From: an uncultured Gammaproteobacteria bacterium
Lineage (GTDB): Bacteria; Pseudomonadota; Gammaproteobacteria; Eutrophobiales; Eutrophobiaceae
NCBI GenBank assembly: GCA_938084745.1
Contig: CALKEZ010000006.1
Location: forward strand, 3,007 to 67,006
Direction of reading: 5' to 3'
Length of the DNA: 64,000 nt
Positions within the stretch are counted from its first letter, which is position 1. Every line of letters starts with the position of its first letter. Below are positions 1,936 through 20,902 of this stretch, piece by piece. The translations under genes and the position numbers were made by a program. Below the pieces are notes generated by a model. The model was not told the origin of the DNA. It saw only the letters and a program-made list of their open reading frames with translations, and did not search any database.

Positions 1936-1970
1936 AATATCGATTGTGTAGGCCCTAAAAAAATAAAAAT

Positions 1971-3785
1971 CTAGAAAGCATAACTTAAGCTAAATGCGAC
2001 GAAGTCCCGATCCTGTAACAGGTTTTGTGAGCCCGCACCATAGAAGCCGGTATAACTTAGATCGGCACGCCAGCTATTTTGATAATCGGCAGTCACGCCC
2101 AGCGTCATTTGTTTGAAACCTTCAATAAAATTTCCCCCGGGACCGGGAGTATTACCGGAAACATCATGTCGCCAACCAATTCTTGGCGATAAATTGACCG
2201 CACCAATGACATTATTATAAGTCAGTCGGCCAACAAAGCGGTATCCCCAGGAAGTAGAGTCAGCATAGTCATTTGTTTCAACAGGAACCGTAAAAAATCC
2301 GGCTGTTATCGGGTTACCGGGAAGGTTTGTTCCGGCAGCCTCTAGACGTAAATCACTTTGACTTGGCATGTCATGTATATGCGTGATGGCGAATTCACTC
2401 AGCATTACTGCCTGATTTGCCTTGAATACATTGCCAAAGACCTTGCTCGCAGTCATTTGAAACTGGCTTACATCACGTTCGATGAACCCCGGGATAGTGG
2501 CACCATTAGCAAACACGCCTAATTGACTCGTTGCGCCGCCGCCGGGTAATAGCTCGAAATGTAGTGCTGCGGCCAGAAGCTCAACATCGTCCACCTGCAG
2601 CGGCACATCATTACGATAGGAATATTCACCTTGCAAAGCGATACCGGAAGTCCCTAATTGTGTATTGAAACTGGCACCAAACAGATGGATATCTTCCGGG
2701 TAACTAATAAAATAGGATGCTGGTAATGCCGGATTATTTACCGGGAAAGTGGCTCCGGGGGTATCTGCTATTGCGTTAATGACCGGCAGGCGGCTATGGT
2801 ACTTGATATGGTAAAAACCGAACTCGGAATCATTGAGTGCTTCTGAATAAATACGTAAAGCAACCCCATATTCTTCACCTTGATCAGGTCTGACATCGTC
2901 GGCACGACCCGCTGAGAATGCAGTACCCGGTGCAGCCCCACAGATAGCAGCCGGGAAGTTAGGTAATGAGGTCAGTGTACCACCCAATGTTAAGTAGTCG
3001 GGACATGCGCCAAAACCCAGTGCGACAAATGTTCCACCAGCCCCGACGAAATCATTAGTACTAAAATATGACCCGGTAGGATCAATCAGCGTACGCTCAT
3101 AGTCATACTGCCAATACGCTTCCAGAGAGACATCATCGAATATTCCAAGCGAGGCAAAGACAATACCAACTGGTGTTAAGGCTTCTTTAAGTTGAGCACC
3201 CGGGACTCTTAACTTACTAACATCAACCGGGTTAATGACATTAATACTGTTTTGAATAAACGTACTCTCGCCCCAGCTAACAACCTGTTCCCCCACGCGC
3301 AAAGAAAAGGGCATTGAACCAATCTTAAAATCACCCCATACATAGGCATCTAATAATGAAAGATTTTCACCGTTTAATCGTATCGTAGTGTCAGACAAGG
3401 GCGTGCGTTGTGTATCACCAGTAATACCATTCGCTTTGCTATCCTGAAAACCGGTACCCCTGACAAAGACACCAAAGTTTTTATAATTGAGTTCGAGTTC
3501 GGTGGTAAATTTAAGTGTGCTGCTTACAAGACCGGTGTCTTTGTAGTTCAAATTACCATCATCACCGTTAGCAGAATATGCAGCACCGCCACTTGCTCTA
3601 CTATGCAAGTCGGACGCCATGGGTTGGACGCGATGCAAAGTACCAAAAGAAATGTTGGTATCCCAACTTCCGGTTAAGTCTCCCTGATTTATTTCAATGG
3701 CCTCAACGTACCCGCCATTTGATAACACGGCGATTAAAAACAGGCTGATAATCCATTTCGATCTTACATGACAATTAGCAGTCAT
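1971..3785 (-). CDS. DUF1302 family outer-membrane beta-barrel protein
   Basis: 604-aa ORF with a signal peptide. Alternating Gly/aromatic-rich strands and a C-terminal ...FSLSYAF with terminal Phe are typical of outer-membrane proteins. Paired with DUF1329. Confidence 0.8.
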   Translation of the reverse strand: MTANCHVRSKWIISLFLIAVLSNGGYVEAIEINQGDLTGSWDTNISFGTLHRVQPMASDLHSRASGGAAYSANGDDGNLNYKDTGLVSSTLKFTTELELNYKNFGVFVRGTGFQDSKANGITGDTQRTPLSDTTIRLNGENLSLLDAYVWGDFKIGSMPFSLRVGEQVVSWGESTFIQNSINVINPVDVSKLRVPGAQLKEALTPVGIVFASLGIFDDVSLEAYWQYDYERTLIDPTGSYFSTNDFVGAGGTFVALGFGACPDYLTLGGTLTSLPNFPAAICGAAPGTAFSAGRADDVRPDQGEEYGVALRIYSEALNDSEFGFYHIKYHSRLPVINAIADTPGATFPVNNPALPASYFISYPEDIHLFGASFNTQLGTSGIALQGEYSYRNDVPLQVDDVELLAAALHFELLPGGGATSQLGVFANGATIPGFIERDVSQFQMTASKVFGNVFKANQAVMLSEFAITHIHDMPSQSDLRLEAAGTNLPGNPITAGFFTVPVETNDYADSTSWGYRFVGRLTYNNVIGAVNLSPRIGWRHDVSGNTPGPGGNFIEGFKQMTLGVTADYQNSWRADLSYTGFYGAGSQNLLQDRDFVAFSLSYAF

Positions 3786-3910: not shown

Positions 3911-5203
3911 CTAGACATCCTGAGACATTTTTTCTGTTGTTGCTGATAAACGATGGATTAATGTTCTCAAAAAAACCTTAAGGAACCTGACCTGACAATT
4001 CAATGAAACCTGGGAAATTACGGTTGAATTAATCTTCATCAAAGAGGTGTGATCAGGTGCTTTAATTGTGGCCGTTCGTTTCGTTTTAGCCAAATAACCC
4101 ATCTCACCAAAACAATCGCCTTTTTCCAGGTTTCGTATCACCGTTCCATTTTTCATAACATCGACACTACCTTTAACGATAATATAAAAACAATCATCCA
4201 TATCGCCTTCAACAATAATGTCATCATTAGCATTATAGTCCTGCCAGCTACTGGCACGGAGGATTTCCCATATTTCCGCATCCGGGAAGCCGGTAAAGAA
4301 ATCAAGTTTTTTAACTGAATTAAACTTTTCTTCAGCGGAAATATCTTTCTTCGGTTTTTCCAGCGTATCAAATGCCTTGGTAAGATCGGCTGCCAGATCA
4401 AGGCCCATCTGATAACGGTTAGCGACATCTTTTTCTAATGCTTTGCAGACAATCTCGTTTAATGAATCCGGCAAATCAGTTCGATAGTCGCTCATAGGCG
4501 GCGGCTCATCATTCAGAATTGTATTGACCAGGCGCGAAAAATTATCTGCCGGAAAAGGTTGTCTGCCAGTCAACAATTCATACATCACCACACCTAATGA
4601 GAAAAGGTCACTCTGATTAGTAACATGTTCTTCTCGCAGTTGTTCTGGTGACATATACCTTGGTGAGCCCATCATGCCGCCCATTTGTGTCGTCGTTGAA
4701 TCGGCATTGTAGATATGGGCAATACTGAAATCACCAATCTTTACATCCTGATCAGGCGTAAACAGTATATTCGAGGGTTTAATATCTCGATGCACCACTC
4801 CTTGTCGGTGAGCGTAATCAAGCGCATTAGCGCATTTGAAAATGATTTCAACGACCTTGTTTACCGGTAATAAATTATCCGAGCTGCAAAAGGGTTTTAA
4901 GGTATTCCCACCCTCGATGTATTCCATAACGATGTAACAGTTATCTTCATCAACACCCGCATCATAGATATTAATGACATTCGGATGAGTCAGGAGGCCC
5001 GCGGTATGCGCCTCATTAAAAAACATCTTCCGATAGCGCGCGCCTGATTCGACATTATTTAACGCATCAAGAAAAGCAACTTTTAATGCTACCGGACGAT
5101 TAATGTAGGGATCATGACCAAGATAGACCACCCCCATACTGCCCCGATCAATTTCTTCACGAACTTCATATTTACCTAGTTTCTCAGGGACATTATTAGT
5201 CAT
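3911..5203 (-). CDS. Hanks-type Ser/Thr protein kinase fused to a C-terminal cyclic-nucleotide-binding domain (paralog 1)
   Basis: Kinase motifs: RGSMGVVY loop, VALKV lysine, HRDIKPSN catalytic loop, DFS (DFG position), SPRYMSPE. C-terminal cNMP-binding signature: FYIIVKGSVDV...GDCFGEMGYLAKTKRTATIKA. Confidence 0.85.
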   Translation of the reverse strand: MTNNVPEKLGKYEVREEIDRGSMGVVYLGHDPYINRPVALKVAFLDALNNVESGARYRKMFFNEAHTAGLLTHPNVINIYDAGVDEDNCYIVMEYIEGGNTLKPFCSSDNLLPVNKVVEIIFKCANALDYAHRQGVVHRDIKPSNILFTPDQDVKIGDFSIAHIYNADSTTTQMGGMMGSPRYMSPEQLREEHVTNQSDLFSLGVVMYELLTGRQPFPADNFSRLVNTILNDEPPPMSDYRTDLPDSLNEIVCKALEKDVANRYQMGLDLAADLTKAFDTLEKPKKDISAEEKFNSVKKLDFFTGFPDAEIWEILRASSWQDYNANDDIIVEGDMDDCFYIIVKGSVDVMKNGTVIRNLEKGDCFGEMGYLAKTKRTATIKAPDHTSLMKINSTVISQVSLNCQVRFLKVFLRTLIHRLSATTEKMSQDV

Positions 5204-7730: not shown

Positions 7731-9020
7731 TCAATCATGACGTGACACATACATTGCTGTTGTTTCAGAGAGTCGTTTAACCAGGGTCTGCATAAAGACA
7801 CGACTAAAGTGTAACTGACATTCTACCGAGGCCTGTTCAATTAGTGTTGCATTAATCTTCATCAAGTCGACATGGTTTCTGGCGAGTATAGTTGCGGTTC
7901 GTTTGGCCTTGCTGAGATAACTCATTTCCCCAAAACAATCGCCGGCTTGTAAATTGCCAATCAAGGCGCCGTCCTTATAAACATCTACCTCGCCAGAGAT
8001 AATGATATAGAACGAATCATCAATATCACCTTCAACAATAATTTGAGTGCCTGTATCAAATTTCTGCCAGATACACGCCCGTATAATCTCCCATATTTCA
8101 GATTCGGGAAACTCGCTGAAAAAATCCAGTGACTGGATAGAATTAAATTTTTCCTGAACTTCAACTTCTTCTTCCGGTTTGTCGAGGTAATCAAATGCCA
8201 GACTTAAGTCTGCAGCAAAATTCAAACCCATTTTGTAGCGTTTCTCCGGATTTTTCTGTAAGGCATGGTGAATAATCTTTTCGAGGATTTCCGGTACATC
8301 AGTCCGGTGAGCACTCAAGGGCGCATTATTTTCGTTGATGATCATATGGATTAAACGCGAAAAACTATCTGCCGGAAAGGGATGCTTACCGGTCAACAAT
8401 TCATACATGACTATACCCAACGAAAAGAGATCAGTTTGATTCGTTATAACATCTTCCTGCACTTGTTCCGGTGACATGTATCGTGGAGAACCAACAAAGC
8501 CCATCGGCATGGTATTGGTTGTGTCAGAGGTCATGATATGAGCAATACTAAAATCGGCAATCTTCACGTCCTGCTCTTGGGTAATTAAAATATTGGTCGG
8601 TTTAATATCCCGGTGAATGACACCATTACGATGGGCATAATCCAGCGCTTTTGCGCATTTAAATGTAATTTCAATGACTTTTTCAAGCGGCAACAGATTC
8701 TTTGCGTTACAGAATGGTTTCAGTGTTTCGCCACCTTCGATGAGTTCCATCACTATATAGCAATGATCATCTTCCGCACCGGCATCCAGAATCTCGACAA
8801 TGTTGGGGTGTCTTAATGTTCCTGCGGCATGAGCTTCGTTAAAGAACATTTTACGATAGCGTTCACCTGATTCTTTATCTTTCAGGGATTCAGATAGAGC
8901 AACTTTCACCGCCACATCGCGTTCGGCAAAAGGGTCGTAACCTTTGTAAACAATACCCATACTGCCACGACCGACCTGCTCTTTTATTTCATACTTGCCT
9001 AATTGTTCAGGAATATTCAT
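7731..9020 (-). CDS. Hanks-type Ser/Thr protein kinase fused to a C-terminal cyclic-nucleotide-binding domain (paralog 2)
   Basis: Collinear with the 3911-5203 protein: GRGSMGIVY, VAVKV, HRDIKPTN, DFS, SPRYMSPE and GDCFGEMSYLSKAKRTATILA. The ORF is open to a GTG at 9038, but the ATG at 9018-9020 (MNIPEQLGKYE) aligns with the start of paralog 1. Confidence 0.85.
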   Translation of the reverse strand: MNIPEQLGKYEIKEQVGRGSMGIVYKGYDPFAERDVAVKVALSESLKDKESGERYRKMFFNEAHAAGTLRHPNIVEILDAGAEDDHCYIVMELIEGGETLKPFCNAKNLLPLEKVIEITFKCAKALDYAHRNGVIHRDIKPTNILITQEQDVKIADFSIAHIMTSDTTNTMPMGFVGSPRYMSPEQVQEDVITNQTDLFSLGIVMYELLTGKHPFPADSFSRLIHMIINENNAPLSAHRTDVPEILEKIIHHALQKNPEKRYKMGLNFAADLSLAFDYLDKPEEEVEVQEKFNSIQSLDFFSEFPESEIWEIIRACIWQKFDTGTQIIVEGDIDDSFYIIISGEVDVYKDGALIGNLQAGDCFGEMSYLSKAKRTATILARNHVDLMKINATLIEQASVECQLHFSRVFMQTLVKRLSETTAMYVSRHD

Positions 9021-9221
9021 TTGAAGATTAAAATACACTACTTATAATGAGTTATTTCATTTTATTAAAACATATTATTGATAAATTACTGAATCTTTCT
9101 CTTAAATTGTTGGCAAAGACGATTCCTTGATACAATTCGAAACTTCTTAATCGTTGTCAATAAACGACAAAACCTGCTCTACTTCTCTGTCAATTTACAC
9201 AAAGGTATAACTAACATCATT

Positions 9222-9971
9222 ATGAAGGCTATTATTCTTGCCGCGGGCATAGGTAACCGACTCGGCAATCATGCTGCAAACCAACCTAAATCGTTACTGG
9301 AATTTGATGGAAAAAGCTTATTAAAACGTCATATTGAGATTCTTTCGGCAAATAATATCGACGAAATTACCATTGTCACCGGCTACGAATCCGCGCTGCT
9401 GATGGATCATCTTCAGGGTCAAAGCATACCTATCAATTACATTTATAATGACCGTTATACCGAAGGCAGTATCATCAGTCTCGGCTGTGCACGGCCGGTA
9501 ATAGTGAGTGAACCTGAATTTATCTTAATGGATGCTGATGTTCTTTATGATCAGGAAATGATTCGGCGTTTGGTCAATACCGCTATAAACAACTGCCTCT
9601 TGCTGGATCGCGACTTTATCCCGGGCGATGAACCAGTCAAGATTTGTGTTGATAAAAATGGACGCATAAATGAATTTAGAAAACACATCGCTGACGATCT
9701 TGATTATACTATGCAGGGAGAATCAGTAGGCTTTTTCAAATTTAATAACCACATTGGCCAGTCCCTGCTTGAACGTATCGATGACTATCTTGCCAAAGGC
9801 GAAAACAAGACGCCCTATGAAGAAGCTATTCGCGATTTGTTATTAGAAGATGCGACACGATTTGGCTATGAAGATGTCACCGGTGTCCCCTGGATCGAAA
9901 TTGATTTCCCTGAAGATATTGAACGTGCACAAAACGAGATAATACCCGCATTAACCCCTATCAATCATTAA
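9222..9971 (+). CDS. LicC/PntC-like nucleotidyltransferase (probable phosphonate or phospho-alcohol cytidylyltransferase)
   Basis: N-terminal MKAIILAAGIGNRLG nucleotide-binding signature, KSLLEFDGKSLL, and C-terminal GVPWIEIDFPEDIERA. It sits immediately upstream of pepM. Confidence 0.75.
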   Translation: MKAIILAAGIGNRLGNHAANQPKSLLEFDGKSLLKRHIEILSANNIDEITIVTGYESALLMDHLQGQSIPINYIYNDRYTEGSIISLGCARPVIVSEPEFILMDADVLYDQEMIRRLVNTAINNCLLLDRDFIPGDEPVKICVDKNGRINEFRKHIADDLDYTMQGESVGFFKFNNHIGQSLLERIDDYLAKGENKTPYEEAIRDLLLEDATRFGYEDVTGVPWIEIDFPEDIERAQNEIIPALTPINH

Positions 9972-9990
9972 TCAGTAGTTAATATAAAAA

Positions 9991-11628
9991 ATGTCTAAAA
10001 ATAGCCATAAAGAAATAAGCAAATGCAAACAGCTGCGTACGCTGCTTGAATCAAACGAACTTGAATTTATCCTCGAAGCCCATAACGGCATCTCGGCAAG
10101 CATTGTAGAAAGCGCCGGTTTTAAGGGTATCTGGGGCAGTGGCCTTGCGATGTCCGCACAGTTTGGCGTACGTGATAGTAATGAGGCCAGTTGGACGCAA
10201 GTGGTCGATATGCTCGAATTCATGTCAGATGCCACCACCATCCCTATCTTGCTAGATGGCGATACCGGCTACGGTAACTTTAATAATATGCGCCGACTGG
10301 TGGTAAAACTTGAGCAACGTGATATCGCTGGCGTCTGCATAGAAGACAAACAGTTCCCTAAAACCAACAGCTTTATTGATGGCAATAAACAACCACTGGC
10401 TGAGATTGGCGAATTCTGTGGCAAGATTAAAGCAGGCAAAGATAGCCAGACCAATGATGATTTTTGTATTGTCGCCAGAGTCGAGGCCTTGATCGCCGGC
10501 TGGGGATTAACTGAGGCATTGAAAAGAGCCGAAGCCTATCATCAGGCTGGAGCGGATGGAATATTAATCCATAGCAAGTTATCCAGACCCGATGAAATCC
10601 TCGCCTTTGCCAAAGAATGGGCTGGACGTTCACCATTGGTTATTGTGCCGACCAAATATTACAGCACACCAACCGACGCCTTTCGTAAAGCAGGTATCGA
10701 TCTTGTTATCTGGGCAAACCACATGATCCGCACCGCTGTGGCCGCCATGGAAAAAACCAGCAAGACTATTTACGAATCAGAGTCTTTAGTTGATGTGGAA
10801 GACAAGATTGCCGGTGTCGACCATATCTTCAAATTACAGGGTGCTGAAGAACTAAGTAAGGCACAGGATAAATACCTCGTCCAAAAGTCGGATATCCACG
10901 CGATCATTCTGGCTGCCAGCCGCGGCAATGAGCTACATGAATTAACGCATGATAAACCCAAGGCCATGATCAGTATTGGTGGCAAAACCCTGCTCGGTCG
11001 CTTAATGGACGGGCTTAAAAAAGCAGGCATCAATAAATCCACCGTCATTGCCGGTTATAAAGCAGAGGCAATAAACCTGCTCGGCATCGAAAAATGCATT
11101 AATGAAGATTATGAAAACGGCGATGAATTAAAAACATTGATCTGCGCACAAGAGAATTTCAACGATGACATGCTGATTCTTTATAGTGATCTTTTATTCC
11201 GGGAATATATTCTCAGGGACTTGATTGAAATAGAAGGCGAAGTGGTCATTATCGTTGACTCTGCGCTGGACAATCCAAATATTACCGGCTCACCAGACTA
11301 TGCTTACTGTAGTAAAGATGATGACCGTTCACCCTTTATGCAAAATGTGACGCTAACCCAATTGTCTTCATCGGCAGATGCCGCTGCGAAACCACCCTCC
11401 GGTTACTGGATTGGCATGATGCGCGTCAGGAAAGAAGGTCGACAATGGATAGAAGCCGCACTCGATGAATTAAAGACTGCAGCAAACTTTAATGAACTGA
11501 CTTTGCCCGATCTGTTGAACCATCTCATCAAACAAGGCAAACCCATTCATGTTCATTATATTGATGGCCATTGGCTTGATGTGAATTCACTGGACGATAT
11601 TGATCGCGCTGGCGATTTCACACAATAA
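9991..11628 (+). CDS. pepM: phosphoenolpyruvate mutase (PepM) fused to a C-terminal nucleotidyltransferase-like domain
   Basis: The N-terminal ~290 aa show isocitrate-lyase/PEP-mutase superfamily motifs ([26 protein letters not shown]). The C-terminal ~250 aa resemble an NTP-transferase ([14 protein letters not shown]...[14 protein letters not shown]...[16 protein letters not shown]). Confidence 0.9.
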
Positions 11629-11664
11629 TGAATCAATGCAATTAAACCTTAAAAGAGAAGTACA

Positions 11665-12819
11665 TTGATAGAAGCAAAAGATTTTGTTGAAGCGGCCCGA
11701 GAACTCGGCTTCAGTCGTTATACAGGTGTGCCCTGTTCATTTTTAACACCGTTTATTAACTATGTCATTAATGATGATGCATTGGAATATGTCTCATCCG
11801 CAAACGAAGGCGATGCGTTGGCCACTGCCGCTGGCGCAGCCATTGGCGGTCAACGTTCCGTTGTGATGATGCAAAACTCAGGTTTGGGTAATGCGGTCAG
11901 TCCCATCACCTCGCTGTCTTATGTATTTCGTATCCCGTGTTTAATCATCAGCACGCATCGCGGGCAACCCGGCGTAAAGGATGAACCACAACATGAACTG
12001 ATGGGACAAATCACCAAAGAACTGTTCGACACGATGCGTGTGCCCTGGGAAATTTTTCCCAGCAAGCTAGAAGATATTGCGCCTGCCTTGCAACGCGCCG
12101 ATGAATACATGAAGAAAGAACAACGACCTTATGCCTTCATCATGGAAAAAGGGATGGTAGCACCACAGGCATTATATAAAAATCCTGTTGCCAATATTTC
12201 AGGACGCAAAGCCCTTGTTCGTTCAGCATATAATCCCGGTGCCATATCGATAAATCGTAATGCAGCATTACGGCGTATTATCGATCACACACCAGAAGAG
12301 AATACCGTCTTAATTGCGACTACCGGATTTACCGGACGTGAGTTATTCGCGATTAATGATCGACCGAATCAAATCTACATGGTCGGTTCGATGGGTTGTG
12401 CCTCATCGCTAGGCCTGGGGATTGCCCTAGCGAGGCCCGATTTAAAAGTCGTTGTGATCGACGGCGACGGTGCTGGCTTGATGCGCATGGGAAATTTCGC
12501 AACCATCGGCAGCTATGCTGGCAATAACCTGATACATATACTATTAAATAATGAAGTACATGATTCCACCGGTGCCCAGGCAACCGTTGGTGGCAATATT
12601 GACTTTTCAAAGGTAGCTGAAGCGAGTGGCTATGGCGTCTGTTTATCGGGTAACGAAATCGAAACGATTGATGAGGTGTTTGCATTGGAACCACAAGCAG
12701 GACCCGTCTTCGCTCATCTAAAAATAGCTGCCGGTACAATTGATGATTTACCCAGGCCGGATATCACCCCAAACGAGGTATTAGTAAGATTTATGCAACA
12801 CATAAACAGCAGTTTTTAA
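11665..12819 (+). CDS. aepY: phosphonopyruvate decarboxylase (TPP-dependent)
   Basis: 384-aa ORF with a TTG start. TPP-binding motif VIDGDGAGLMRMGNFATIG...NNEVHDSTG. Positioned directly after pepM. Confidence 0.9.
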   Translation: MIEAKDFVEAARELGFSRYTGVPCSFLTPFINYVINDDALEYVSSANEGDALATAAGAAIGGQRSVVMMQNSGLGNAVSPITSLSYVFRIPCLIISTHRGQPGVKDEPQHELMGQITKELFDTMRVPWEIFPSKLEDIAPALQRADEYMKKEQRPYAFIMEKGMVAPQALYKNPVANISGRKALVRSAYNPGAISINRNAALRRIIDHTPEENTVLIATTGFTGRELFAINDRPNQIYMVGSMGCASSLGLGIALARPDLKVVVIDGDGAGLMRMGNFATIGSYAGNNLIHILLNNEVHDSTGAQATVGGNIDFSKVAEASGYGVCLSGNEIETIDEVFALEPQAGPVFAHLKIAAGTIDDLPRPDITPNEVLVRFMQHINSSF

Positions 12820-12821
12820 CT

Positions 12822-13910
12822 ATGACAACTCTATTACTCAATCCGGGCCCTGTCGTTTTAAGTAAACGTGTGCGTGAGGCACTGTTAAAACCCGATCTCT
12901 GTCATCGCGAACAAGAGTTTATCGATTTACAAAACAAGATCCGAACTGAGTTGTTGAATATTTATCAACTCCTCGCTACCGACTGGGCAAGTATTGTCTT
13001 TACCGGTTCTGGCACCTCAGCAATGGAAGCGATGCTGACCAGCCTTGTGCCCGCACACGGCAAAGTACTAATCATCGAAAATGGCGTCTATGGTGAACGC
13101 CTGACCAAGATTGCCCAGATACATGATATTGCGCATGTCGTACTACATAATGGATGGGGTGATGAGATCGATCTCGTCAAGCTTGAAGGAGAACTCCAAT
13201 ACCATAAAGAAATTTCACATGTTGCCGTAGTCCATCATGAAACTACCACGGGACGTTTAAATGATATCGATGCCATTGCAGAACTCTGCAAAAAATACGG
13301 CAACATCCCTATGCTACTCGATGCTGTCAGCAGCTTTGGTGCAGAAGAAATAAAATTTGAAGACTGGAATATCGCTGCCTGTGCCGCAACCGCAAACAAA
13401 TGTTTACATGCCGTACCAGGGACATCTTTCGTGATTGCAAATAGAACCGCGATGGCACAAATGTCGGCAACACCTCCCCGCACACTCTATCTTGATCTGG
13501 TTACCTACCTTAAAAATCAGGACGCCAATGGCACACCCTTCACGCAATCGGTACACACATTCTATGCTTTGGCCGAGGCATTAGATGAATTAAACGATGC
13601 GGGTGGTTGGAAAAAAAGACAACAACTCTACTGGCAACGCATGGATATCGTGCGTGATGGTTTACAACAACTAAACATCAACGCCTGCCTTGAACGAGAA
13701 CAATGCTCCTGTGTATTAAACTCATTCCCGTTACCCAAAGGCATCAGTTACGAATTACTACATGACAAACTCAAAACAGCCGGCTTCGTGATCTACGCCG
13801 GTCAAGGCAGCTTTGCACAATCACGCTTTCGCATCTCTTGCATGGGAGAGATAAGTAATAGTGATATGGAACGGTTAGTTAAAGAAATTAAAAATATTGT
13901 TAGTGGTTAG
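12822..13910 (+). CDS. phnW: 2-aminoethylphosphonate--pyruvate transaminase (class V aminotransferase)
   Basis: 362-aa ORF with class V aminotransferase features (LLNPGPV, FTGSGTSAMEA, ANKCLHAVPG lysine region). It starts 2 nt after the ppd stop. Confidence 0.85.
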   Translation: MTTLLLNPGPVVLSKRVREALLKPDLCHREQEFIDLQNKIRTELLNIYQLLATDWASIVFTGSGTSAMEAMLTSLVPAHGKVLIIENGVYGERLTKIAQIHDIAHVVLHNGWGDEIDLVKLEGELQYHKEISHVAVVHHETTTGRLNDIDAIAELCKKYGNIPMLLDAVSSFGAEEIKFEDWNIAACAATANKCLHAVPGTSFVIANRTAMAQMSATPPRTLYLDLVTYLKNQDANGTPFTQSVHTFYALAEALDELNDAGGWKKRQQLYWQRMDIVRDGLQQLNINACLEREQCSCVLNSFPLPKGISYELLHDKLKTAGFVIYAGQGSFAQSRFRISCMGEISNSDMERLVKEIKNIVSG

Positions 13911-14618: not shown

Positions 14619-14661
14619 AAATAGACTAATATTAATCATCTTGATTAATGTTTAATTCCCC

Positions 14662-14803
14662 CTTATAGCTTGCCTCGTCTTTATTCTATTTTGGAGGGTT
14701 GAGCAACACGGATGTTGCGAAAGCGTATTGACCAGAGGGACGTCGTCTATACGCGTGCCAGTTAAAATAGAATAAGGACGAGGGTATCCGCAGGACAAGC
14801 TAT
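14662..14803. other. ~140-nt imperfect palindrome / multi-stem structured element (possible sRNA, REP- or MITE-like element)
   Basis: The 20-nt arms 14673-14692 and 14764-14783 are complementary with one G-T wobble when read on the + strand. An outer 8-bp stem pairs 14665-14672 with 14796-14803. Internal hairpins are gcaac/gttgc (14703-14718) and gcgtat/atacgc (14723-14754). Confidence 0.5.
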
Positions 14804-14902: not shown

Positions 14903-16804
14903 CTACGATGCTCTACTAATTTTTCGTTCCTTTTCAGATTGATCTAATTGCGCAGTAATAAAGTCAAGTATGCCTTCATAATCGAGCTTCGCATCTCTTA
15001 ACATATCATCTCGGGAACCGTGTTGAAGTAATCTATCCGGTAAACCGTAGTTAGCCACTTTTTGGGTAATGCCATGGGCTGCAATAACTTCATTCACAGC
15101 TGCACCGGCGCCACCGGGTATAACGTTTTCTTCAACCGTAACAATCAGATCATGATCGGCACACATTTCAACAATCAGCATTTCATCGATCGGTTTAACA
15201 AAACGCATGTTAACGACTGTTGCATTGAGTTCTTCTGCTATACGTTCACAAGGTTCAACCATGGTTCCAAATGCGAGTATTGCCAGGTTCTTGCCTTTAC
15301 GTCTTAGTTCAGCCTTACCAATCGGTAACGCCGTCATCTCTTGTTGAATTTCCACGCCGGGACCGGTGCCACGTGGATAACGCACGGCTGCAGGCTGATC
15401 GAGTTGATAACCTGTATATAGCATCTGACGACATTCGTTTTCATCTGCCGGTGCCATGATCACCATATTCGGCAAGCAACGCATAAAACTGAGATCGTAA
15501 GAACCGTTATGGGTTGGACCATCAGCACCAACACAACCGGCCCGGTCTATTGCAAACAGTACCGGTAATTCCTGAACAACGACGTCATGGATCAACTGAT
15601 CATAGGCGCGTTGCAGGAATGTAGAATAGATTGCAACAACCGGCTTTAAACCGTCACACGCCATACCAGCGGCAACAGTGACACTATGTTGTTCCGCGAT
15701 AGCCACATCGAAATACTTATCCGGGTGATCTTTTTCAAACTGAACCAGACCAGAGCCTTCACGCATCGCCGGGGTTATTGCCGCAAAACGGTGATCCAGT
15801 GTTGCCATATCATTGGCCCAATCACCAAAGATCTTGCTATAGGTTGGACCGGAAGAAGACGGTTTAGCGGGTGGAACAATACCCTTGTGTGGATCAAACG
15901 GTGTAACACCATGATATTTAACCGGATCATTCTCCGCCGGCTCGTAGCCTTTTCCTTTCTTGGTAATGATGTGTAAAAACTGGGGACCTTCGAGTTCTCT
16001 TATGTTCTTTAAGGTCGCGATCAGCGCATGCAGATCATGCCCGTCTACCGGCCCAATATAATTGAATCCAAATTCTTCAAATAATGTTCCCGGAACAATC
16101 AAGCCTTTGACATGCTCTTCTGCTCGTTTCGCTAATTCGACTGCATTCGGGATATTGGATAATACTTTTTTACTGCCCTTGCGCATGCTGGAATATATCT
16201 TTCCGGAGATTAACTGCGCAAAACGATTTGAAAGTGCACCGACATTGGGTGAAATCGACATATTATTGTCATTCAGAATAACCAACAGGTCGCTATGTTG
16301 TGCGCCGGCATGATTCAGCGCCTCAAAAGCCATACCCGCTGTCATACTGCCATCGCCAATAATGGCGACACATTTTCGATCTGAACCGGTTCTGGACGCC
16401 GCTATAGACATACCCAAAGCCGCACTAATAGAGGTACTGGAATGCCCTACTCCAAAGGTGTCGTATTCACTTTCATCACGTTTGGGAAACGGGGCTAAAC
16501 CTTCCCATTGACGAATACTGTGCAGGCGATCTTTTCTGCCGGTCAGGATTTTATGAATATAGGCTTGATGACCCACGTCCCAAACCAGACGATCCTCCGG
16601 TGTGTTATACAGATAATGAAGTGCCACGGTTAGTTCCGTCACGCCCAAACTAGCCGCAAAGTGGCCACCACTCTTGCTCACAGAATGGAGCAAAAACAAT
16701 CTGAGTTCTTCGACGAGCTGTTCTAATTGCGATTCGGGCAGCTTTCTGAGATCTGCAGGGCAATTAATTTGGTCAAGAAGAGGTGTATTTATTTCGTTAT
16801 TCAT
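14903..16804 (-). CDS. dxs: 1-deoxy-D-xylulose-5-phosphate synthase
   Basis: 633-aa ORF with [24 protein letters not shown], the [18 protein letters not shown] motif and transketolase-like C-terminal domains. Confidence 0.95.
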
Positions 16805-17029: not shown

Positions 17030-18160
17030 ATGGGTGTACCTCTAATTCAGCAATTCAGGATGGGAAAATATATCCTCGGCAAAAAATTCAGTGGAGAAAA
17101 GAAATATCCATTGGTCTTAATGTTAGAGCCTTTGTTTCGTTGCAATCTGGCCTGTGCCGGCTGTGGCAAAATTGATTATCCGAAAGAGATACTGGATAAA
17201 CGCCTGAGTTATGAAGAATGCATGACTGCTATCGATGAATGTGGTGCCCCGGTCGTGTCTATTGCTGGCGGCGAACCATTGATACACAAGGAAATGAAGC
17301 AGATTGTTGATGGTTATATTGAGCGTAAGAAATTCGTTTATCTTTGCACAAACGCACTCTTGTTGAAGAAACATATTGATGAATACACACCATCACCCTA
17401 TTTAACCTTTTCTATCCATCTTGACGGTAATAAAGAGCGTCATGATGCGTCGGTCTGTCTAGACGGTGTTTTTGATAAATGTATAAATGTTATTAAACTG
17501 GCCCGTGAAAAAGGCTTCCGTGTCACCATCAACTGCACCCTGTTCCAGAACGAAACCGCTGATGAGGTTGCTGAATTCATGGATATGGCGATGGAATTGG
17601 GCGTCGAAGGCGTTACCATATCGCCGGGATACAATTACGAAAGAGCGCCAAAACAGGATGTATTCCTGAAGAAAACCGAAAGCAAACAACTTTTCCGAGA
17701 CATATTCAAATTAGGCATCGGTAAAAAATGGCGTTTCAACCAGTCCTCCTTGTATCTGGATTTCCTGGCCGGTAACCAGACCTATGAATGTACGCCCTGG
17801 GGGAATCCAACCCGTAATGTATTTGGTTGGCAAAAACCCTGTTACCTTTTGGTAGGCGAAGGTTATGCACCAACTTTCTCTGCCTTGATGGCAGATACTG
17901 AATGGGAAAATTATGGCACCGGACGTAATCCTAAATGCGCCAATTGCATGGTTCATTGTGGTTATGAAGCTACCGCTGTTAACGACACGGTAAGCCATCC
18001 ATTCAAGGCCTTGGGTATCTTCCTTAAAGGACCGAAGACGGAGGGCGAAATGGCACCTGAATTACCCATACTCTATGACGATGATGCGGTAACCGCACCG
18101 AAACTGGTTGCTGAAAATAAAGCGACAAAGAGTTGCGGTAGTAGTAAACAAGTCGCCTGA
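17030..18160 (+). CDS. hpnH: hopanoid biosynthesis radical SAM protein HpnH (adenosylhopane synthase)
   Basis: 376-aa ORF with the radical-SAM CNLACAGCGK motif preceded by YPLVLMLEPLFR. Length and C-terminal Cys-rich region (KCANCMVHCGYE) are typical of HpnH. Confidence 0.9.
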   Translation: MGVPLIQQFRMGKYILGKKFSGEKKYPLVLMLEPLFRCNLACAGCGKIDYPKEILDKRLSYEECMTAIDECGAPVVSIAGGEPLIHKEMKQIVDGYIERKKFVYLCTNALLLKKHIDEYTPSPYLTFSIHLDGNKERHDASVCLDGVFDKCINVIKLAREKGFRVTINCTLFQNETADEVAEFMDMAMELGVEGVTISPGYNYERAPKQDVFLKKTESKQLFRDIFKLGIGKKWRFNQSSLYLDFLAGNQTYECTPWGNPTRNVFGWQKPCYLLVGEGYAPTFSALMADTEWENYGTGRNPKCANCMVHCGYEATAVNDTVSHPFKALGIFLKGPKTEGEMAPELPILYDDDAVTAPKLVAENKATKSCGSSKQVA

Positions 18161-19272
18161 TGGAATTTACACTCCTGGCAGTAATGCCAGGATTGCTTAT
18201 CTGGGTCGCAATACTCTTATTGCCCTGGCGGCCCTGGAGTACCCGAGAATCTCTCGATAACCAAACCACAGAAAAACAGGACTTATCCGAAGTCACAGTC
18301 CTTATTCCCGCCCGGGATGAAGCTGACACAATAACTCAAACTCTCACTGCCCTGAAAGAACAGGGTGATGGACTGCAGGTGGTTCTGGTTGATGATCAAT
18401 CTACCGATAATACCGCTGAGCTGGCTAAATCCGTCAATCTGGCCAACCTCAATATCGTCTCTGGCACAACACTGGCCGACGGTTGGAGTGGTAAGTTATG
18501 GGCGCTGGAACAGGGTCGACAGCATGTGAAAACCAAATACCTTTTGTTGTTAGACGCTGATATTGTTTTAGTACCGGGGCTCATTCCAACACTCGTCGAA
18601 TTCGCACGAAAAAATGACTTGAAAATGTTGTCTTTAATGGCTCATTTGAAGATGCAATCACACTGGGAAAAGTTTTTAATGCCCGCCTTTATCTTCTTTT
18701 TCAAACTGCTTTATCCATTTCATCTGTCGAACAAACCTGCTTCATCAATCGCCGCTGCTGCAGGAGGCTGTATCCTGCTGGAATCGAGTATACTTGAAAA
18801 ATTAGGCGGGTTTGATTGCATCAAAAATGCCTTGATTGATGACTGTTCATTGGCTAGGCAAGTTAAAGCAGACGGACATAAGATCTGGATGGGTTTAACT
18901 CATTCGGCAATTAGTATTCGAAGTTACGATACACTTTCAACGATCTGGCAGATGGTCAGCCGAACAGCCTACACACAGCTTGCCTATTCCCCGCTACTGT
19001 TAATCATTTGCACTATGCTCATGATTGCTGCCTTTGGTTTACCCATCGCCGCATTATTACAAACACAACTCACTGTCTTCATAGCCGGTCTACTCATACT
19101 CGGCTTACAAGTCGTCTGTTATCTGCCCACGCTACGCTATTACTCGATGAATCCTCTGTATGCCTTATCATTGCCCTTAACCGGTGTTCTCTACTTATTA
19201 ATGACATGGAGTTCCGCATTTCATTATTATTTCGGTAAGGGCGCGGTCTGGAAGAACCGCCATTATAATTAA
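18160..19272 (+). CDS. hpnB: hopene-associated family-2 glycosyltransferase HpnB
   Basis: N-terminal TM segment, then VLIPARDEA...VVLVDDQSTDNT...GWSGKLWAL (GT2). The ATG overlaps the hpnH stop by 1 nt (tgATG). Confidence 0.75.
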   Translation: MEFTLLAVMPGLLIWVAILLLPWRPWSTRESLDNQTTEKQDLSEVTVLIPARDEADTITQTLTALKEQGDGLQVVLVDDQSTDNTAELAKSVNLANLNIVSGTTLADGWSGKLWALEQGRQHVKTKYLLLLDADIVLVPGLIPTLVEFARKNDLKMLSLMAHLKMQSHWEKFLMPAFIFFFKLLYPFHLSNKPASSIAAAAGGCILLESSILEKLGGFDCIKNALIDDCSLARQVKADGHKIWMGLTHSAISIRSYDTLSTIWQMVSRTAYTQLAYSPLLLIICTMLMIAAFGLPIAALLQTQLTVFIAGLLILGLQVVCYLPTLRYYSMNPLYALSLPLTGVLYLLMTWSSAFHYYFGKGAVWKNRHYN

Positions 19273-19374
19273 TTGCAACAAAACCCAGTTGAACACATCT
19301 AATTCTCTGTAACTTGGAAACAATGATAAAATAACCCGATTGATCTGCATTATAATAACCATGGATTTCACCTG

Positions 19375-20010
19375 ATGACATTAATGAACACTCAGTTTGT
19401 GCGACTTTTAAAATCTATATTATGCCTGGGCATGCTATTTCTCAGTTGTTTTATATCGGCTGAAGCCATCGAGGAAGAAGCGATTCAGGCTCCCGTCAAT
19501 GAATTGCATACAACCTTAATCAGCATCATGCAGGCGGCTGAAAAGCAAAGCTTTCAAGAACGTTACGACATTATGGAAAAGACCGTGCTTAAGCACTTTG
19601 ATTCGCCTCTGATAGCGAAAGTTATATTAGGTCGATACTGGAAAACGCTGGATCAAACTTCACAAACCGAGTTTATCGACTTGTTTAATCAACTGACGAT
19701 AGCCACTTATGTCGACCGATTTGATTCTTACGAAGGTGAAACTTTTAAAAACCTCGCTGTAGAACAAATGAAAGAAAATCGGTTTATGGTAAAAACAGAA
19801 TTTCTGCCGGTGGATGACGAGCCGATTTCATTTAACTACATTATTCAAAGTAATAAGGATAAATGGAAAATTATCAGTGTTATCGCTGATGGTATTAACG
19901 ACCTGTCGTTGAAACGGGCAGACTATTCCGCGGTCATTAAAGATCAAGGCTTTGATGCCCTGATAACCACTTTGAAAGAAAAAATAAGCGCCTTGAAACC
20001 AAAATCCTGA
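19375..20010 (+). CDS. hpnM: MlaC/Ttg2D-family periplasmic lipid-binding protein (HpnM-like)
   Basis: 211-aa ORF with a signal peptide. The toluene-tolerance Ttg2D-like pattern is present (ILGRYWKTL...F..LF...YV..F). Located in the hpn cluster. Confidence 0.7.
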   Translation: MTLMNTQFVRLLKSILCLGMLFLSCFISAEAIEEEAIQAPVNELHTTLISIMQAAEKQSFQERYDIMEKTVLKHFDSPLIAKVILGRYWKTLDQTSQTEFIDLFNQLTIATYVDRFDSYEGETFKNLAVEQMKENRFMVKTEFLPVDDEPISFNYIIQSNKDKWKIISVIADGINDLSLKRADYSAVIKDQGFDALITTLKEKISALKPKS

Positions 20011-20107
20011 ACAAAACTAATATTAAAAATTGTCTCCAGCCTTAAGGTATGTCAATATTTGCCGATAGATTTTAACAACCTATTTGCATTGCAAGAGAGA
20101 GTAGAAA

Positions 20108-20902
20108 ATGACTGGATGGCGATTATTTAATATAGCAAAACTCATTATTCCTACCTGGCTGATATTACTGGCGACGGGTTGTGCAACAACACAAAATAAT
20201 GACGGTGCTAGTGACCCATTGGAACCGGCAAACCGAGTGATCTTTGATGTAACAGAGACACTGGATAAACATCTTATAAAGCCAATAGCAGAGCAATATG
20301 TCGATGTACTTCCGGTACCCGTTAGGACCAGCGTAACCAACTTTTTCAATAACCTCGGCTACTTGAATGTCATCTTGAATGATTTTTTGCAAGGGAAATT
20401 TGAACAGGGAATAACAGATATGCTTCGCTTTACCTATAATTCAACGTTTGGTATTGCCGGCCTGTTCGATGTTTCTACACCAATAGGAATGCCGGCTAAT
20501 CAAGAAGATTTTGGCCAAACACTTGCTGTTTGGGGGGTAGATCAAGGCTCTTATCTCTATATAATCGCGCCAACCACAACACGTGACATAACAGATCAAG
20601 TACCAAGCACACTGTTAAACCCGTTCTTTTATATGCAAGGTCTAATTTTCGCTCCGATTAGCGCTCTAAGCGCTATAAATACCCGCGCCAATCTGCTTGA
20701 AGCAACTAAGATTCGTGACGAAGCAGCGCTTGATCCTTATTCGTTTACCCGTGAAGCCTATTTACAACAACGTGAATTTCTCATCTACGACGGCAACCCG
20801 CCGGATACTGGTTATGATGATATCTTCGGTGATAATGGCGATTTCGACGATTTTAGCGATGCCGGAGATAGTAACGATTCGGGAATACTGATCATCGAAT
20901 AA
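20108..20902 (+). CDS. MlaA/VacJ-family outer-membrane lipoprotein
   Basis: Lipobox LLATGC. VacJ motifs DPLEPANRVIFDVT, NNLGYLNVILNDFLQGK and EDFGQTLAVWGV. Acidic low-complexity C-terminal tail. Confidence 0.85.
   Translation: MTGWRLFNIAKLIIPTWLILLATGCATTQNNDGASDPLEPANRVIFDVTETLDKHLIKPIAEQYVDVLPVPVRTSVTNFFNNLGYLNVILNDFLQGKFEQGITDMLRFTYNSTFGIAGLFDVSTPIGMPANQEDFGQTLAVWGVDQGSYLYIIAPTTTRDITDQVPSTLLNPFFYMQGLIFAPISALSAINTRANLLEATKIRDEAALDPYSFTREAYLQQREFLIYDGNPPDTGYDDIFGDNGDFDDFSDAGDSNDSGILIIE

Follow-up and report, generated by a model that had tools for sequence, protein, structure and literature searches.

To what molecule is 2-aminoethylphosphonate (AEP) transferred in a bacterium whose AEP operon lies beside no recognisable transferase gene? 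The question is raised by a 64,000-nucleotide (nt) stretch of contig CALKEZ010000006.1 (assembly GCA_938084745.1, from an uncultured gammaproteobacterium of the Eutrophobiaceae), which was analysed as a whole and is called the window below. At positions 9222-13910 it carries four forward-strand open reading frames (ORFs) encoding a stand-alone nucleotidyltransferase (NT1), a phosphoenolpyruvate (PEP) mutase (PepM, also known as Ppm) fused to a second nucleotidyltransferase domain (NT2), a phosphonopyruvate decarboxylase (Ppd) and a 2-aminoethylphosphonate aminotransferase (AEPT). Judged by its gene content, this operon is a trimmed version, with four genes of seven, of the CDP-OH/Group 1 phosphonolipid cluster. 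The best explanation overall, to which we give moderate confidence, is that the operon makes AEP and its activated form as a member of Group 1 and that the product is destined for a lipid head group.

The four genes are separated by gaps of 19, 36 and 2 nt, and their coordinates, spacing and family scores (Table 1) agree with the preliminary description of the locus, which had been made from the letters of the sequence. The PepM domain contains the Ppm-specific motif EDKxxxxxNS at residues 118-127, which is invariant in the alignment of fusion proteins, and it matches PepM of Mytilus (1m1b) both in sequence (E 1e-128) and, as a predicted model, in structure (TMt 0.94-0.95). As an observation in its own right, the domain is 67% identical to this crystallised "mollusk" PEP mutase (1m1b/1pym), an unusually high value for an animal and a bacterium. 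The aminotransferase scores 279 against the catabolic PhnW model TIGR02326, under the cutoff of 400.8. A catabolic, PhnW-type role of the gene set was rejected because PepM and Ppd are present and because AEPT passes TIGR03301 (PhnW-AepZ) and fails both PhnW transaminase models. All domains of the operon are under purifying selection in comparisons with relatives 60-94% identical (nonsynonymous divergence, dN, 0.04-0.18; synonymous divergence, dS, saturated). Two weak sigma-70-like matches occur on the forward strand at 9021-9048 and 9194-9223, and in scans for promoters and terminators such sites were no commoner than in shuffled sequence. From family membership we infer that the four genes constitute one operon that would make AEP from PEP and activate it.

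The chemistry can be predicted from equivalog-level family matches and characterised homologs, which uphold the route proposed earlier for this locus. The PepM domain would convert PEP to phosphonopyruvate, and Ppd would decarboxylate the latter to phosphonoacetaldehyde, thereby pulling the unfavourable PepM equilibrium forward. AEPT would then form AEP by transamination, and NT1 would join AEP to cytidine monophosphate (CMP) at the expense of cytidine triphosphate (CTP), yielding CMP-AEP.

The assignment of the last step draws on the similarity of NT1 to PntC. The enzymes Ari1348 and Tde1415, stand-alone or fused to AEPT, are AEP-specific cytidylyltransferases of this name (Rice et al. 2019, PMC6697681). 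Among solved structures, NT1 is closest in sequence to the Treponema denticola PntC domain in Tde1415 (6pd1, E 4.7e-13; Tde-PntC below) and next closest to LicC (1jyk). The P-loop of NT1, GIGNR-x8-PK, meets the consensus GXG(T/S)RX4-8PK, with Asn rather than Thr/Ser at position 4; residues R13 and K23 align with R15 and K25 of Tde-PntC, and GxGxR is present in 115 of the 120 closest NT1 homologs. At the AEP-contact columns of Tde-PntC, which fall in a poorly aligned region of the MAFFT alignment, NT1 has Glu at Glu196 and Lys at Lys153. It also has WIEID, and WIEIDFPEDIERA is its form of a C-terminal motif shared with NT2; the PF12804 and PntC matches bear out the earlier view of both domains as LicC/PntC-like proteins with a common C-terminal motif. 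The dN of NT1 is 0.12-0.18, with dS saturated. In our reading, NT1 is a canonical PntC, a predicted CTP:AEP cytidylyltransferase that would feed a transferase; what points to AEP as its preferred substrate is the genomic context, namely the adjoining genes for PepM, Ppd and AEPT.

Two known systems help to place NT1. The Pnt clusters of T. denticola, Atopobium rimae and Olsenella uli (PMC6697681; 6PD1/6PD2) likewise combine AEP synthesis with cytidylyl activation and have a Ppm-fused and a separate nucleotidyltransferase in one cluster, and Tde-PntC is the best match of NT1 by sequence and of NT2 by structure. They differ in adjoining LicD-like or glycosyltransferase genes, the clusters being thought to decorate glycans, and in that PntC of Tde1415 is fused to AEPT, unlike NT1; only PntC proteins not fused to Ppm were assayed. 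The second system is IPCT/DIPPS (4MND, NF041135), a CTP:inositol-1-phosphate cytidylyltransferase fused to a CDP-alcohol phosphotransferase, in which an NT1-type enzyme and a small PF01066 enzyme similarly form a pair that activates and then transfers. The best NCBIfam match of NT1 is the cytidylyltransferase half of this family (NF041135, 83.7 bits), and the PF01066 protein encoded in relatives (see below) matches its transferase half. Both scores are far under the family cutoff, the substrate of IPCT/DIPPS is an inositol phosphate and its parts are fused, so that the likeness is one of analogy and not of membership. A fusion of NT1 to PF01066 was sought among the 120 best NT1 homologs, where stand-alone proteins alone were found.

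The closest counterpart is a published cluster family. Nucleotidyltransferase domains are attached to about 60% of Ppm enzymes, PF12804 accounting for 33%, and clusters with both a ppm-fused and a nearby stand-alone nucleotidyltransferase have already been pointed out (Rice et al. 2019, PMC6697681). The "Burkholderiales_CDP-OH" group, with 318 members, was designated Group 1 phosphonolipids (Li & Horsman 2022, PMC8942020), and Ppm, Ppd, AEPT, an alpha-ketoglutarate-dependent oxygenase and two phospholipid-type genes are among the components of its seven-gene core (PMC8942020). The window shares with CDP-OH/Group 1 clusters (Yu et al. 2013; PMC8942020) the Ppm-PF12804 fusion, the second PntC, Ppd and AEPT in the same order, and its PepM-NT2 protein is 59-61% identical to the proteins of Burkholderia, Paraburkholderia and Cupriavidus. 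It differs in lacking the alpha-ketoglutarate-dependent (HalD-type) oxygenase, the CDP-alcohol phosphatidyltransferase and the PF03706 membrane protein. Since the oxygenase is missing, 1-hydroxylation is not predicted for this locus, and since the transferase is missing, the transfer step is not local. The presence of two nucleotidyltransferases had been regarded as unusual. This view has to be given up, because the published clusters with a Ppm-fused and a stand-alone enzyme (Rice 2019, PMC6697681; Li & Horsman 2022, PMC8942020) carry two, which makes two the rule in the CDP-OH family and not an oddity.

Comparative analysis of the neighbourhood accounts for the missing genes. A lookup of the exact PepM-NT2 sequence of the window gave no record, and its context was therefore drawn from homologs. 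The PepM-NT2 fusion has thousands of homologs of the same architecture. The closest genome records are metagenome-assembled genomes (MAGs) of uncultured marine or aquatic gammaproteobacteria, some labelled Thiotrichaceae, followed by Nostoc (about 65% identity) and Burkholderiales (about 60%). We tabulated 89 related loci by tblastn and built gene-order strings, using precomputed Pfam annotation of the neighbours; ORF calling was crude outside low-GC loci, and the Burkholderiales loci, where spurious antisense ORFs arise at high GC, were scored by tblastn presence or absence. In the window lineage, NT1, PepM-NT2, Ppd and AEPT lie between a pgi/kinase block and a dxs/hpnH block. Distant gammaproteobacterial relatives (59-63% PepM identity) have extra genes upstream of the operon, in the order squalene-synthase-like, hpnG-like, hpnN, a CDP-alcohol phosphatidyltransferase of about 200 amino acids (aa; PF01066), hpnA, a PF03706/HpnL-like gene and a HalD-type oxygenase. 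These are followed by NT1, PepM-NT2, Ppd, AEPT, dxs on the opposite strand and hpnH, then hpnB, hpnM and mlaA. The full extended order is found in loci L069, L034 and L040, and in L090/L091 it reaches hpnH, where both loci end. The trio of transferase, oxygenase and PF03706 protein also lies directly upstream of NT1 in Nostoc, in Nitrococcus mobilis Nb-231 (L092) and in the NT1-bearing Burkholderiales loci. Together with the operon, this trio makes up the published seven-gene core (PMC8942020), which L090/L091 and L092 show in one row as CDP-OH_P_transf, LPG_synthase_TM, HalD, NTP_transf_3, PEP_mutase+NTP_transf_3, Ppd and AEPT. A different gene set is seen in L008/L009/L016, L018 and L045, where NT1, PepM-NT2 and Ppd are followed by dxs; the local product would then be phosphonoacetaldehyde, unless the genome has a transaminase or reductase gene at another site.

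Altogether, 24 of the 89 loci encode a CDP-alcohol phosphatidyltransferase immediately next to the operon, and cleanly annotated examples are available besides (L090/L091, L092). The preliminary description had called the lack of a transferase unusual and had itself named, as an observation that would speak against its proposal, relatives with an obvious transferase gene immediately outside the operon; this is what the pepM-neighbourhood comparison found. The transferase occurs in 24 of 67 NT1-positive loci vs none of 22 NT1-negative loci (Fisher p = 5e-4, not adjusted for phylogeny). NT2 is present regardless of the transferase, so that it is NT1, not NT2, that co-varies with the latter.

The same association is seen from the side of the transferase. 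Metagenome contigs of JGI were scanned with an alignment of the PF01066 transferase, which gave 42 loci of at least 9 kb. The transferase adjoins the oxygenase gene in 37 of these, the PF03706 gene in 36, NT1 in 35 and the PepM-NT2 fusion in 30, several others being cut by contig ends. Given these neighbours, the transferases form a small PF01066 subfamily dedicated to the phosphonate cluster. In the full cluster, this small CDP-alcohol phosphatidyltransferase would take the phosphonyl head group off CMP and attach it to the alcohol of a membrane lipid, the HalD-type oxygenase would probably hydroxylate AEP, and the PF03706 (MprF-TM/HpnL-like) protein would probably flip the product. By comparison with the relatives, the head group in the present genome would be transferred by a cluster-specific enzyme encoded outside the window.

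For the window itself, ORFs of at least 100-150 aa, depending on the region, were scanned against Pfam over the whole 64 kb, a few overlapping longer genes excepted. No LicD, PF01066, EptA-like or polysaccharide genes were found among the ORFs scanned, and the rest of the window holds mostly housekeeping genes. The earlier statement that the operon lacks a transferase thus extends to the whole window, as judged by the Pfam scan and tblastn.

Several observations weigh against a Group 1 lipid pathway in this genome. Neither a transferase nor a HalD-type oxygenase nor a PF03706 gene was found in the 64-kb window (tblastn E<1e-3, Pfam scan), and no CDP-OH transferase lies within 10 kb of the operon in the relatives that share the pgi/kinase synteny (L001, L005-L009, L012, L014-L017, L019, L020, L022). 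Since close relatives have no transferase near the operon, this lineage may have a different acceptor system or may make do with AEP that is free or bound to CMP. AEPT is gone in L008/L009/L016, L018 and L045 and NT1 is gone in L002, losses that hint at ongoing reduction. At the enzyme level, NT1 has Asp at the column of Glu104 of Tde-PntC, like LicC (D105), which leaves its AEP specificity unproven, and NT2 lacks Arg15 and, in the alignment, the Lys153 loop. Finally, the whole CDP-OH/Group 1 family has no characterised product (PMC8942020). With these points considered, the transferase of this genome would be encoded outside the 64 kb or would have been lost, and on balance we would still expect the product to go to a lipid, be it a glycerolipid or a hopanoid. 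A membrane-lipid head group is likely, rather than a glycan, the acceptor being diacylglycerol or a hopanoid polyol; the latter is considered because of the conserved embedding of the operon in hpn genes.

This embedding leads to the first alternative, in which the operon would be a module of the hpn locus and the CDP-alcohol phosphotransferase would esterify AEP, or hydroxy-AEP, to bacteriohopanepolyol or another hopanoid-derived alcohol. In the window, the operon abuts dxs, hpnH, hpnB, hpnM and mlaA. HpnB, a glycosyltransferase of family GT2 (18160-19272), and hpnH lie 3-4 kb downstream of the operon, past the convergent dxs gene. By its family scores (HpnH, TIGR03470, 549.9 bits, cutoff 225; HpnB, TIGR03469, 409.6, cutoff 379; HpnM, TIGR03481, 174.1, cutoff 160; MlaA, PF04333) this is a genuine hopanoid-associated block. 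The preliminary description had overlooked it together with dxs when it named an ORF of 106 aa and a small NrtS-like ORF as the only following genes; these two ORFs are present, the first having no family match. Linkage to the block extends far into the relatives: dxs is the next gene after Ppd/AEPT in about 16 loci at species level, with PepM identities as low as 59% and even where the upstream synteny is lost, and in L090/L091, the transferase ORF overlaps the stop of hpnN by 11 nt and the start of hpnA by 4 nt. The assignments of HpnN (TIGR03480, 800 bits, cutoff 752) and HpnA (TIGR03466, 493 bits) in the relatives are based on family scores.

Rearranged gene orders are also found. Among the 42 metagenome loci, hpn genes are adjacent in 16, in at least three different orders, these co-occurrence loci being phylogenetically non-independent; in L143 and L169, a same-strand run comprises hpnG, hpnA, transferase, oxygenase, HpnL-like gene, NT1, PepM-NT2, Ppd and AEPT. 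In L070, such genes lie at the opposite end of the operon, where a CDP-OH transferase, hpnA, an HpnL-like gene and a gene of the sulfotransferase family separate AEPT from dxs. Clustering that is kept despite rearranged order is the usual signature of functional linkage. The sulfotransferase-family gene of L070 (9251-10570, forward strand; PF13469, 161 bits), which lies between the HpnL-like gene and dxs, is a separate observation that hints at further tailoring of the head group.

Precedents for such a neighbourhood come from genome mining. In Nitrosococcus, another gammaproteobacterium, the "phosphonate-terpene" gene cluster family (GCF) 731 has an AEPT-type phosphonate cluster beside squalene/hopanoid genes (Wang et al. 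2020, PMC7285500; PMC8942020). A phosphonoterpene was speculated upon for this genus (PMC7285500, PMC8942020), and a similar remark was made for Acetobacteraceae (PMC8776678). These reports are based on antiSMASH or BiG-SCAPE adjacency alone, and the window differs in having hpnH, hpnB, hpnM, mlaA and dxs and not squalene synthase or cyclase; shc was not found in the 64 kb. The functions of hpnA, hpnB and hpnL are not established according to a survey of 2025 (PMC12583986), which leaves room for a role of these genes in such a pathway. However, Burkholderiales, most Nostoc and Nitrococcus mobilis carry the seven-gene core with no hpn genes beside it, and the close relatives L001, L005-7, L015 and L020 have kept the operon and lost the hpn adjacency. 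The clustering could also mean co-regulated envelope remodelling instead of a shared molecule, and the supporting loci are not phylogenetically independent. In the literature searched, we found no phosphonate-bearing hopanoid and no link between hopanoid loci and a CDP-alcohol phosphotransferase. A phosphono-hopanoid is thus a tentative proposal, to which we give a minor share of the probability.

The role of the second nucleotidyltransferase has to be considered separately. NT2 and NT1 are only 29% identical over the N-terminal 119 residues. The P-loop of NT2 (LAASRGNEL...PK) and its C-terminal WLDVN are non-canonical: the sequence SRGNE-x8-PK fails the PntC consensus, with Ser in place of the first Gly and Glu in place of Arg15, and retains K324 as the equivalent of Lys25. 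The NT2 domain was searched against 1.84 billion representative proteins, motifs were scanned and columns were mapped to Tde-PntC numbering, and two classes emerged. Class B (38 sequences including NT1 and Tde-PntC; 36 database representatives) has the loop A-G-x-G-x-R-L...PK and W-x-E-x-D, whereas class A (66 sequences including NT2; 65 database representatives) has A-[STA]-[RKQ]-G-x-x-[LF]...PK and W-x-D-x-[DN]. Class A is defined by the lack of Arg/Lys at the Arg15 column, a split that the remaining P-loop columns and the W-x-D/E column follow. The Arg15 column is occupied in class A by E, A, G or D, and no counterpart of the Lys153 loop is seen in the alignment, which is poor near Lys153 and Glu196. 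A basic residue stands at position 2 of the P-loop in 55 of 58 ungapped class A sequences. Of the 65 class A representatives, 45 have a PepM segment N-terminal to the domain and the others are too short to tell; in class B, only 3 of 36 have one.

Conservation within the class is high. Among the 120 closest PepM-NT2 homologs of the window protein, 119 have [ST]RGxx, and K324, D400, D423 and W528 do not vary among fusions that share 40-89% identity with it. The dN of NT2 (0.05-0.10, synonymous sites being saturated) is below that of NT1. The AlphaFold2 (AF2) model of the domain (pLDDT 94.5, pTM 0.91) has as its top Foldseek matches in the PDB the PntC structures 6pd2/6pd1 (TMq 0.77-0.81, root-mean-square deviation 2.5-2.8, about 245 columns), of which 6pd2 is best (TMq 0.81), ahead of the sugar-1-phosphate enzyme ST0452 and LicC (TMq 0.78); in this predicted model, the PntC/LicC-type fold spans the whole domain. 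NT2 belongs to a conserved and distinct class of PepM-tethered, PntC-like domains and is probably catalytic. Our best guess is that it acts as a second phosphonate cytidylyltransferase that serves the PepM-proximal flux and does not simply duplicate NT1. Decay or inactivity was rejected as the principal interpretation of NT2, because the deviations are conserved across the class, dN is below that of NT1 and the PntC-like fold is complete. Both P-loop types also occur in one polypeptide: a natural triple fusion NT1-PepM-NT2 (PF12804-PF13714-PF12804; protein P0112, 797 aa) was found on three contigs from ENA and JGI samples (L003 6819-9212, L004 6801-9194) and keeps GIGKR and SRGHA.

A far-reaching combination of these ideas would make the AEP operon a working part of the hopanoid locus that places AEP or 1-hydroxy-AEP onto bacteriohopanepolyol, with NT2 as a distinct class that has a relocated P-loop Arg and a substrate of its own; we hold this combination to be doubtful. 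Alternatively, NT2 could be a non-catalytic, nucleotide-binding regulatory or scaffold domain that tunes or stabilises PepM, leaving NT1 as the sole real cytidylyltransferase. The whole class lacks the P-loop Arg and, in the alignment, the Lys153 loop, and NT2 is present with or without a nearby transferase or NT1. In Tde-PntC, the substitutions R15A, K25A and K153A each lower the activity to below 10% (Rice et al. 2019, PMC6697681), and two of them concern the residues that have no counterpart in class A. However, the catalytic Lys (PK), the metal-binding D400 and W-x-D are invariant or nearly so across the fusions mentioned above, the conserved basic residue at position 2 of the P-loop could stand in for the lost Arg, and both the low dN and the complete fold, nearest to PntC, speak against a loss of catalysis. 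Moreover, NT2 is the sole candidate for an activating enzyme where NT1 is absent (L002, Paraburkholderia loci). Fom1 of the fosfomycin pathway offers a precedent of an active Ppm-fused cytidylyltransferase: it acts on a downstream phosphonate, converting 2-hydroxyethylphosphonate (HEP) to CMP-HEP. Unlike NT2, the Fom1 domain is N-terminal, belongs to PF01467 (CTP_transf_like) instead of being a C-terminal PF12804 domain, and serves an antibiotic pathway. A non-catalytic NT2 is therefore unlikely in our judgement, and the reading of NT2 as a probable catalytic class is retained. In the literature searched, we found no paper that assays a PF12804 domain fused to Ppm, in keeping with the earlier description, which left its role open.

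A glycan is a less probable destination than a lipid. In this alternative, CMP-AEP would be used by a LicD-like or glycosyltransferase-linked system encoded elsewhere in the genome and would decorate a surface polysaccharide, lipopolysaccharide or glycoprotein, a fate also put forward for phosphonates of oral bacteria. PntC clusters lie beside LicD-like or glycosyltransferase genes (Rice et al. 2019, PMC6697681), phosphonylated glycoproteins have been proposed for marine producers (PMC8931226), and the closest relatives of the window are uncultured gammaproteobacteria of the kind listed above; the lack of a CDP-OH transferase near the operon in the window lineage would fit as well. However, LicD or polysaccharide genes were found neither in the window nor beside the operon in the related loci inspected, the sole glycosyltransferase nearby is the hopanoid-associated HpnB, and the relatives of the cluster consistently pair with the lipid-type PF01066 transferase, all of which makes a phosphonoglycan or phosphonoglycoprotein improbable here. 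Least probable is a decaying remnant that has lost its transfer machinery and makes only free AEP or CMP-AEP or nears loss, as the three core genes of seven absent from the window and the loss of AEPT or NT1 in relatives might suggest, because the four genes are intact with equivalog-level scores, are under strong purifying selection and are conserved as a set in many related MAGs.

The features of the operon and its surroundings are collected in Table 1.

Table 1. Coordinates of the AEP operon and of neighbouring features in the window
Feature	Coordinates	Strand	Evidence
Ser/Thr protein kinase with C-terminal cyclic-nucleotide (cNMP)-binding domain, possible regulator	7731..9038	-	Pkinase 196 bits, cNMP_binding 61 bits
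Divergent intergenic region between kinase gene and NT1, 183 bp, presumed operon promoter region	9039..9221		
NT1, stand-alone PntC/LicC-like cytidylyltransferase (predicted), 249 aa	9222..9971	+	PF12804 55.8 bits, also PF00483
PepM-NT2 fusion gene, 545 aa	9991..11628	+	
PEP mutase (Ppm/PepM) domain, residues 1-295 of the fusion	9991..10875	+	TIGR02320 395.1 bits, cutoff 319.55
NT2, PepM-fused nucleotidyltransferase domain, residues ~296-545	10876..11628	+	PF12804 34 bits, residues ~303-535
Phosphonopyruvate decarboxylase (Ppd), 384 aa	11665..12819	+	TIGR03297 441.6 bits, cutoff 312.5; TPP_enzyme_N, TPP_enzyme_C
2-Aminoethylphosphonate aminotransferase (AEPT), biosynthetic AepZ type, 362 aa	12822..13910	+	TIGR03301 396.8 bits, cutoff 360.8
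Membrane protein ORF, 106 aa	13968..14288	+	no family match
NrtS-like ORF, 78 aa	14382..14618	+	NF038050, 59.8 bits
dxs, convergent with the operon	14903..16804	-	TIGR00204 908 bits
hpnH-hpnB (GT2)-hpnM (MlaC-like)-mlaA/vacJ block	17030..20902	+	NCBIfam and Pfam matches

Upstream of the operon, the divergent cNMP-gated kinase gene is present as described earlier. Its adjacency to NT1 is kept in the relatives with pgi/kinase synteny listed above and lost in distant ones that keep the operon, and it was therefore not taken as an integral part of the pathway. It is one of two paralogous Ser/Thr kinases with C-terminal cNMP-binding domains (3911-5203 and 7731-9038, both on the reverse strand) that flank a CBS-domain gene and pgi; the pair is kept in relatives L005-7, L012, L014, L015 and L020. 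A class I adenylate cyclase is encoded at 47420-50116 on the forward strand, 38 kb away. Further upstream of the kinase/pgi block lies a DUF1329 (LolA-like)/DUF1302 pair (568-3785, reverse strand), a conserved envelope module that in relatives extends to a BNR/Ycf48-like protein and to a putative N-terminus, as judged by eye, of a transporter of the resistance-nodulation-division (RND) type.

On the downstream side, the 106-aa and NrtS-like ORFs were rejected as pathway components, as all 89 related loci were found to lack homologs of both. A sub-threshold match to the TwoAYGGAY RNA (RF01731; 33.5 bits, gathering score 43, E 0.026) spans 14657-14799 on the forward strand, in the intergenic region that separates the NrtS-like ORF from the 3' end of dxs. 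A long stem is closed there by an inverted repeat of 20 nt (14673-14692/14764-14783), with a fold of -51.7 kcal/mol (z = -4.1 vs shuffles), and the element may represent either structured RNA or a repeat. Beyond the hopanoid-associated block, a gene for YhdP (27520-31365, forward strand; 1281 aa; PF13116, 772 bits) is located 6.6 kb downstream of the HpnM/MlaA genes (19375-20902, forward strand), so that several lipid-trafficking genes are gathered near the operon.

In itself, the finding is an ordinary one, adding one more member to the most abundant family of phosphonate gene clusters. It is worth keeping because the product of the whole family has never been identified, and it brings with it three by-products of interest, namely the recurrent integration of the cluster into hopanoid loci, the co-variation of NT1 with the transferase and the conserved class of non-canonical P-loops. 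The PepM-fused domains, which about a third of all PEP mutases carry, form a separate class without the canonical catalytic Arg and should not be equated in activity with PntC. A cultured carrier of the seven-gene core is available in Nitrococcus mobilis Nb-231, and the CDP-OH transferases that are recurrently interleaved with hpn genes lacking an established function (hpnA, hpnB, hpnL, hpnM) point to concrete targets for lipidomics. If the connection to hopanoids were true, it would reveal an undescribed class of phosphono-hopanoid lipids and would place hpnA, hpnB, hpnL-like genes and hpnM in their synthesis, flipping and transport.

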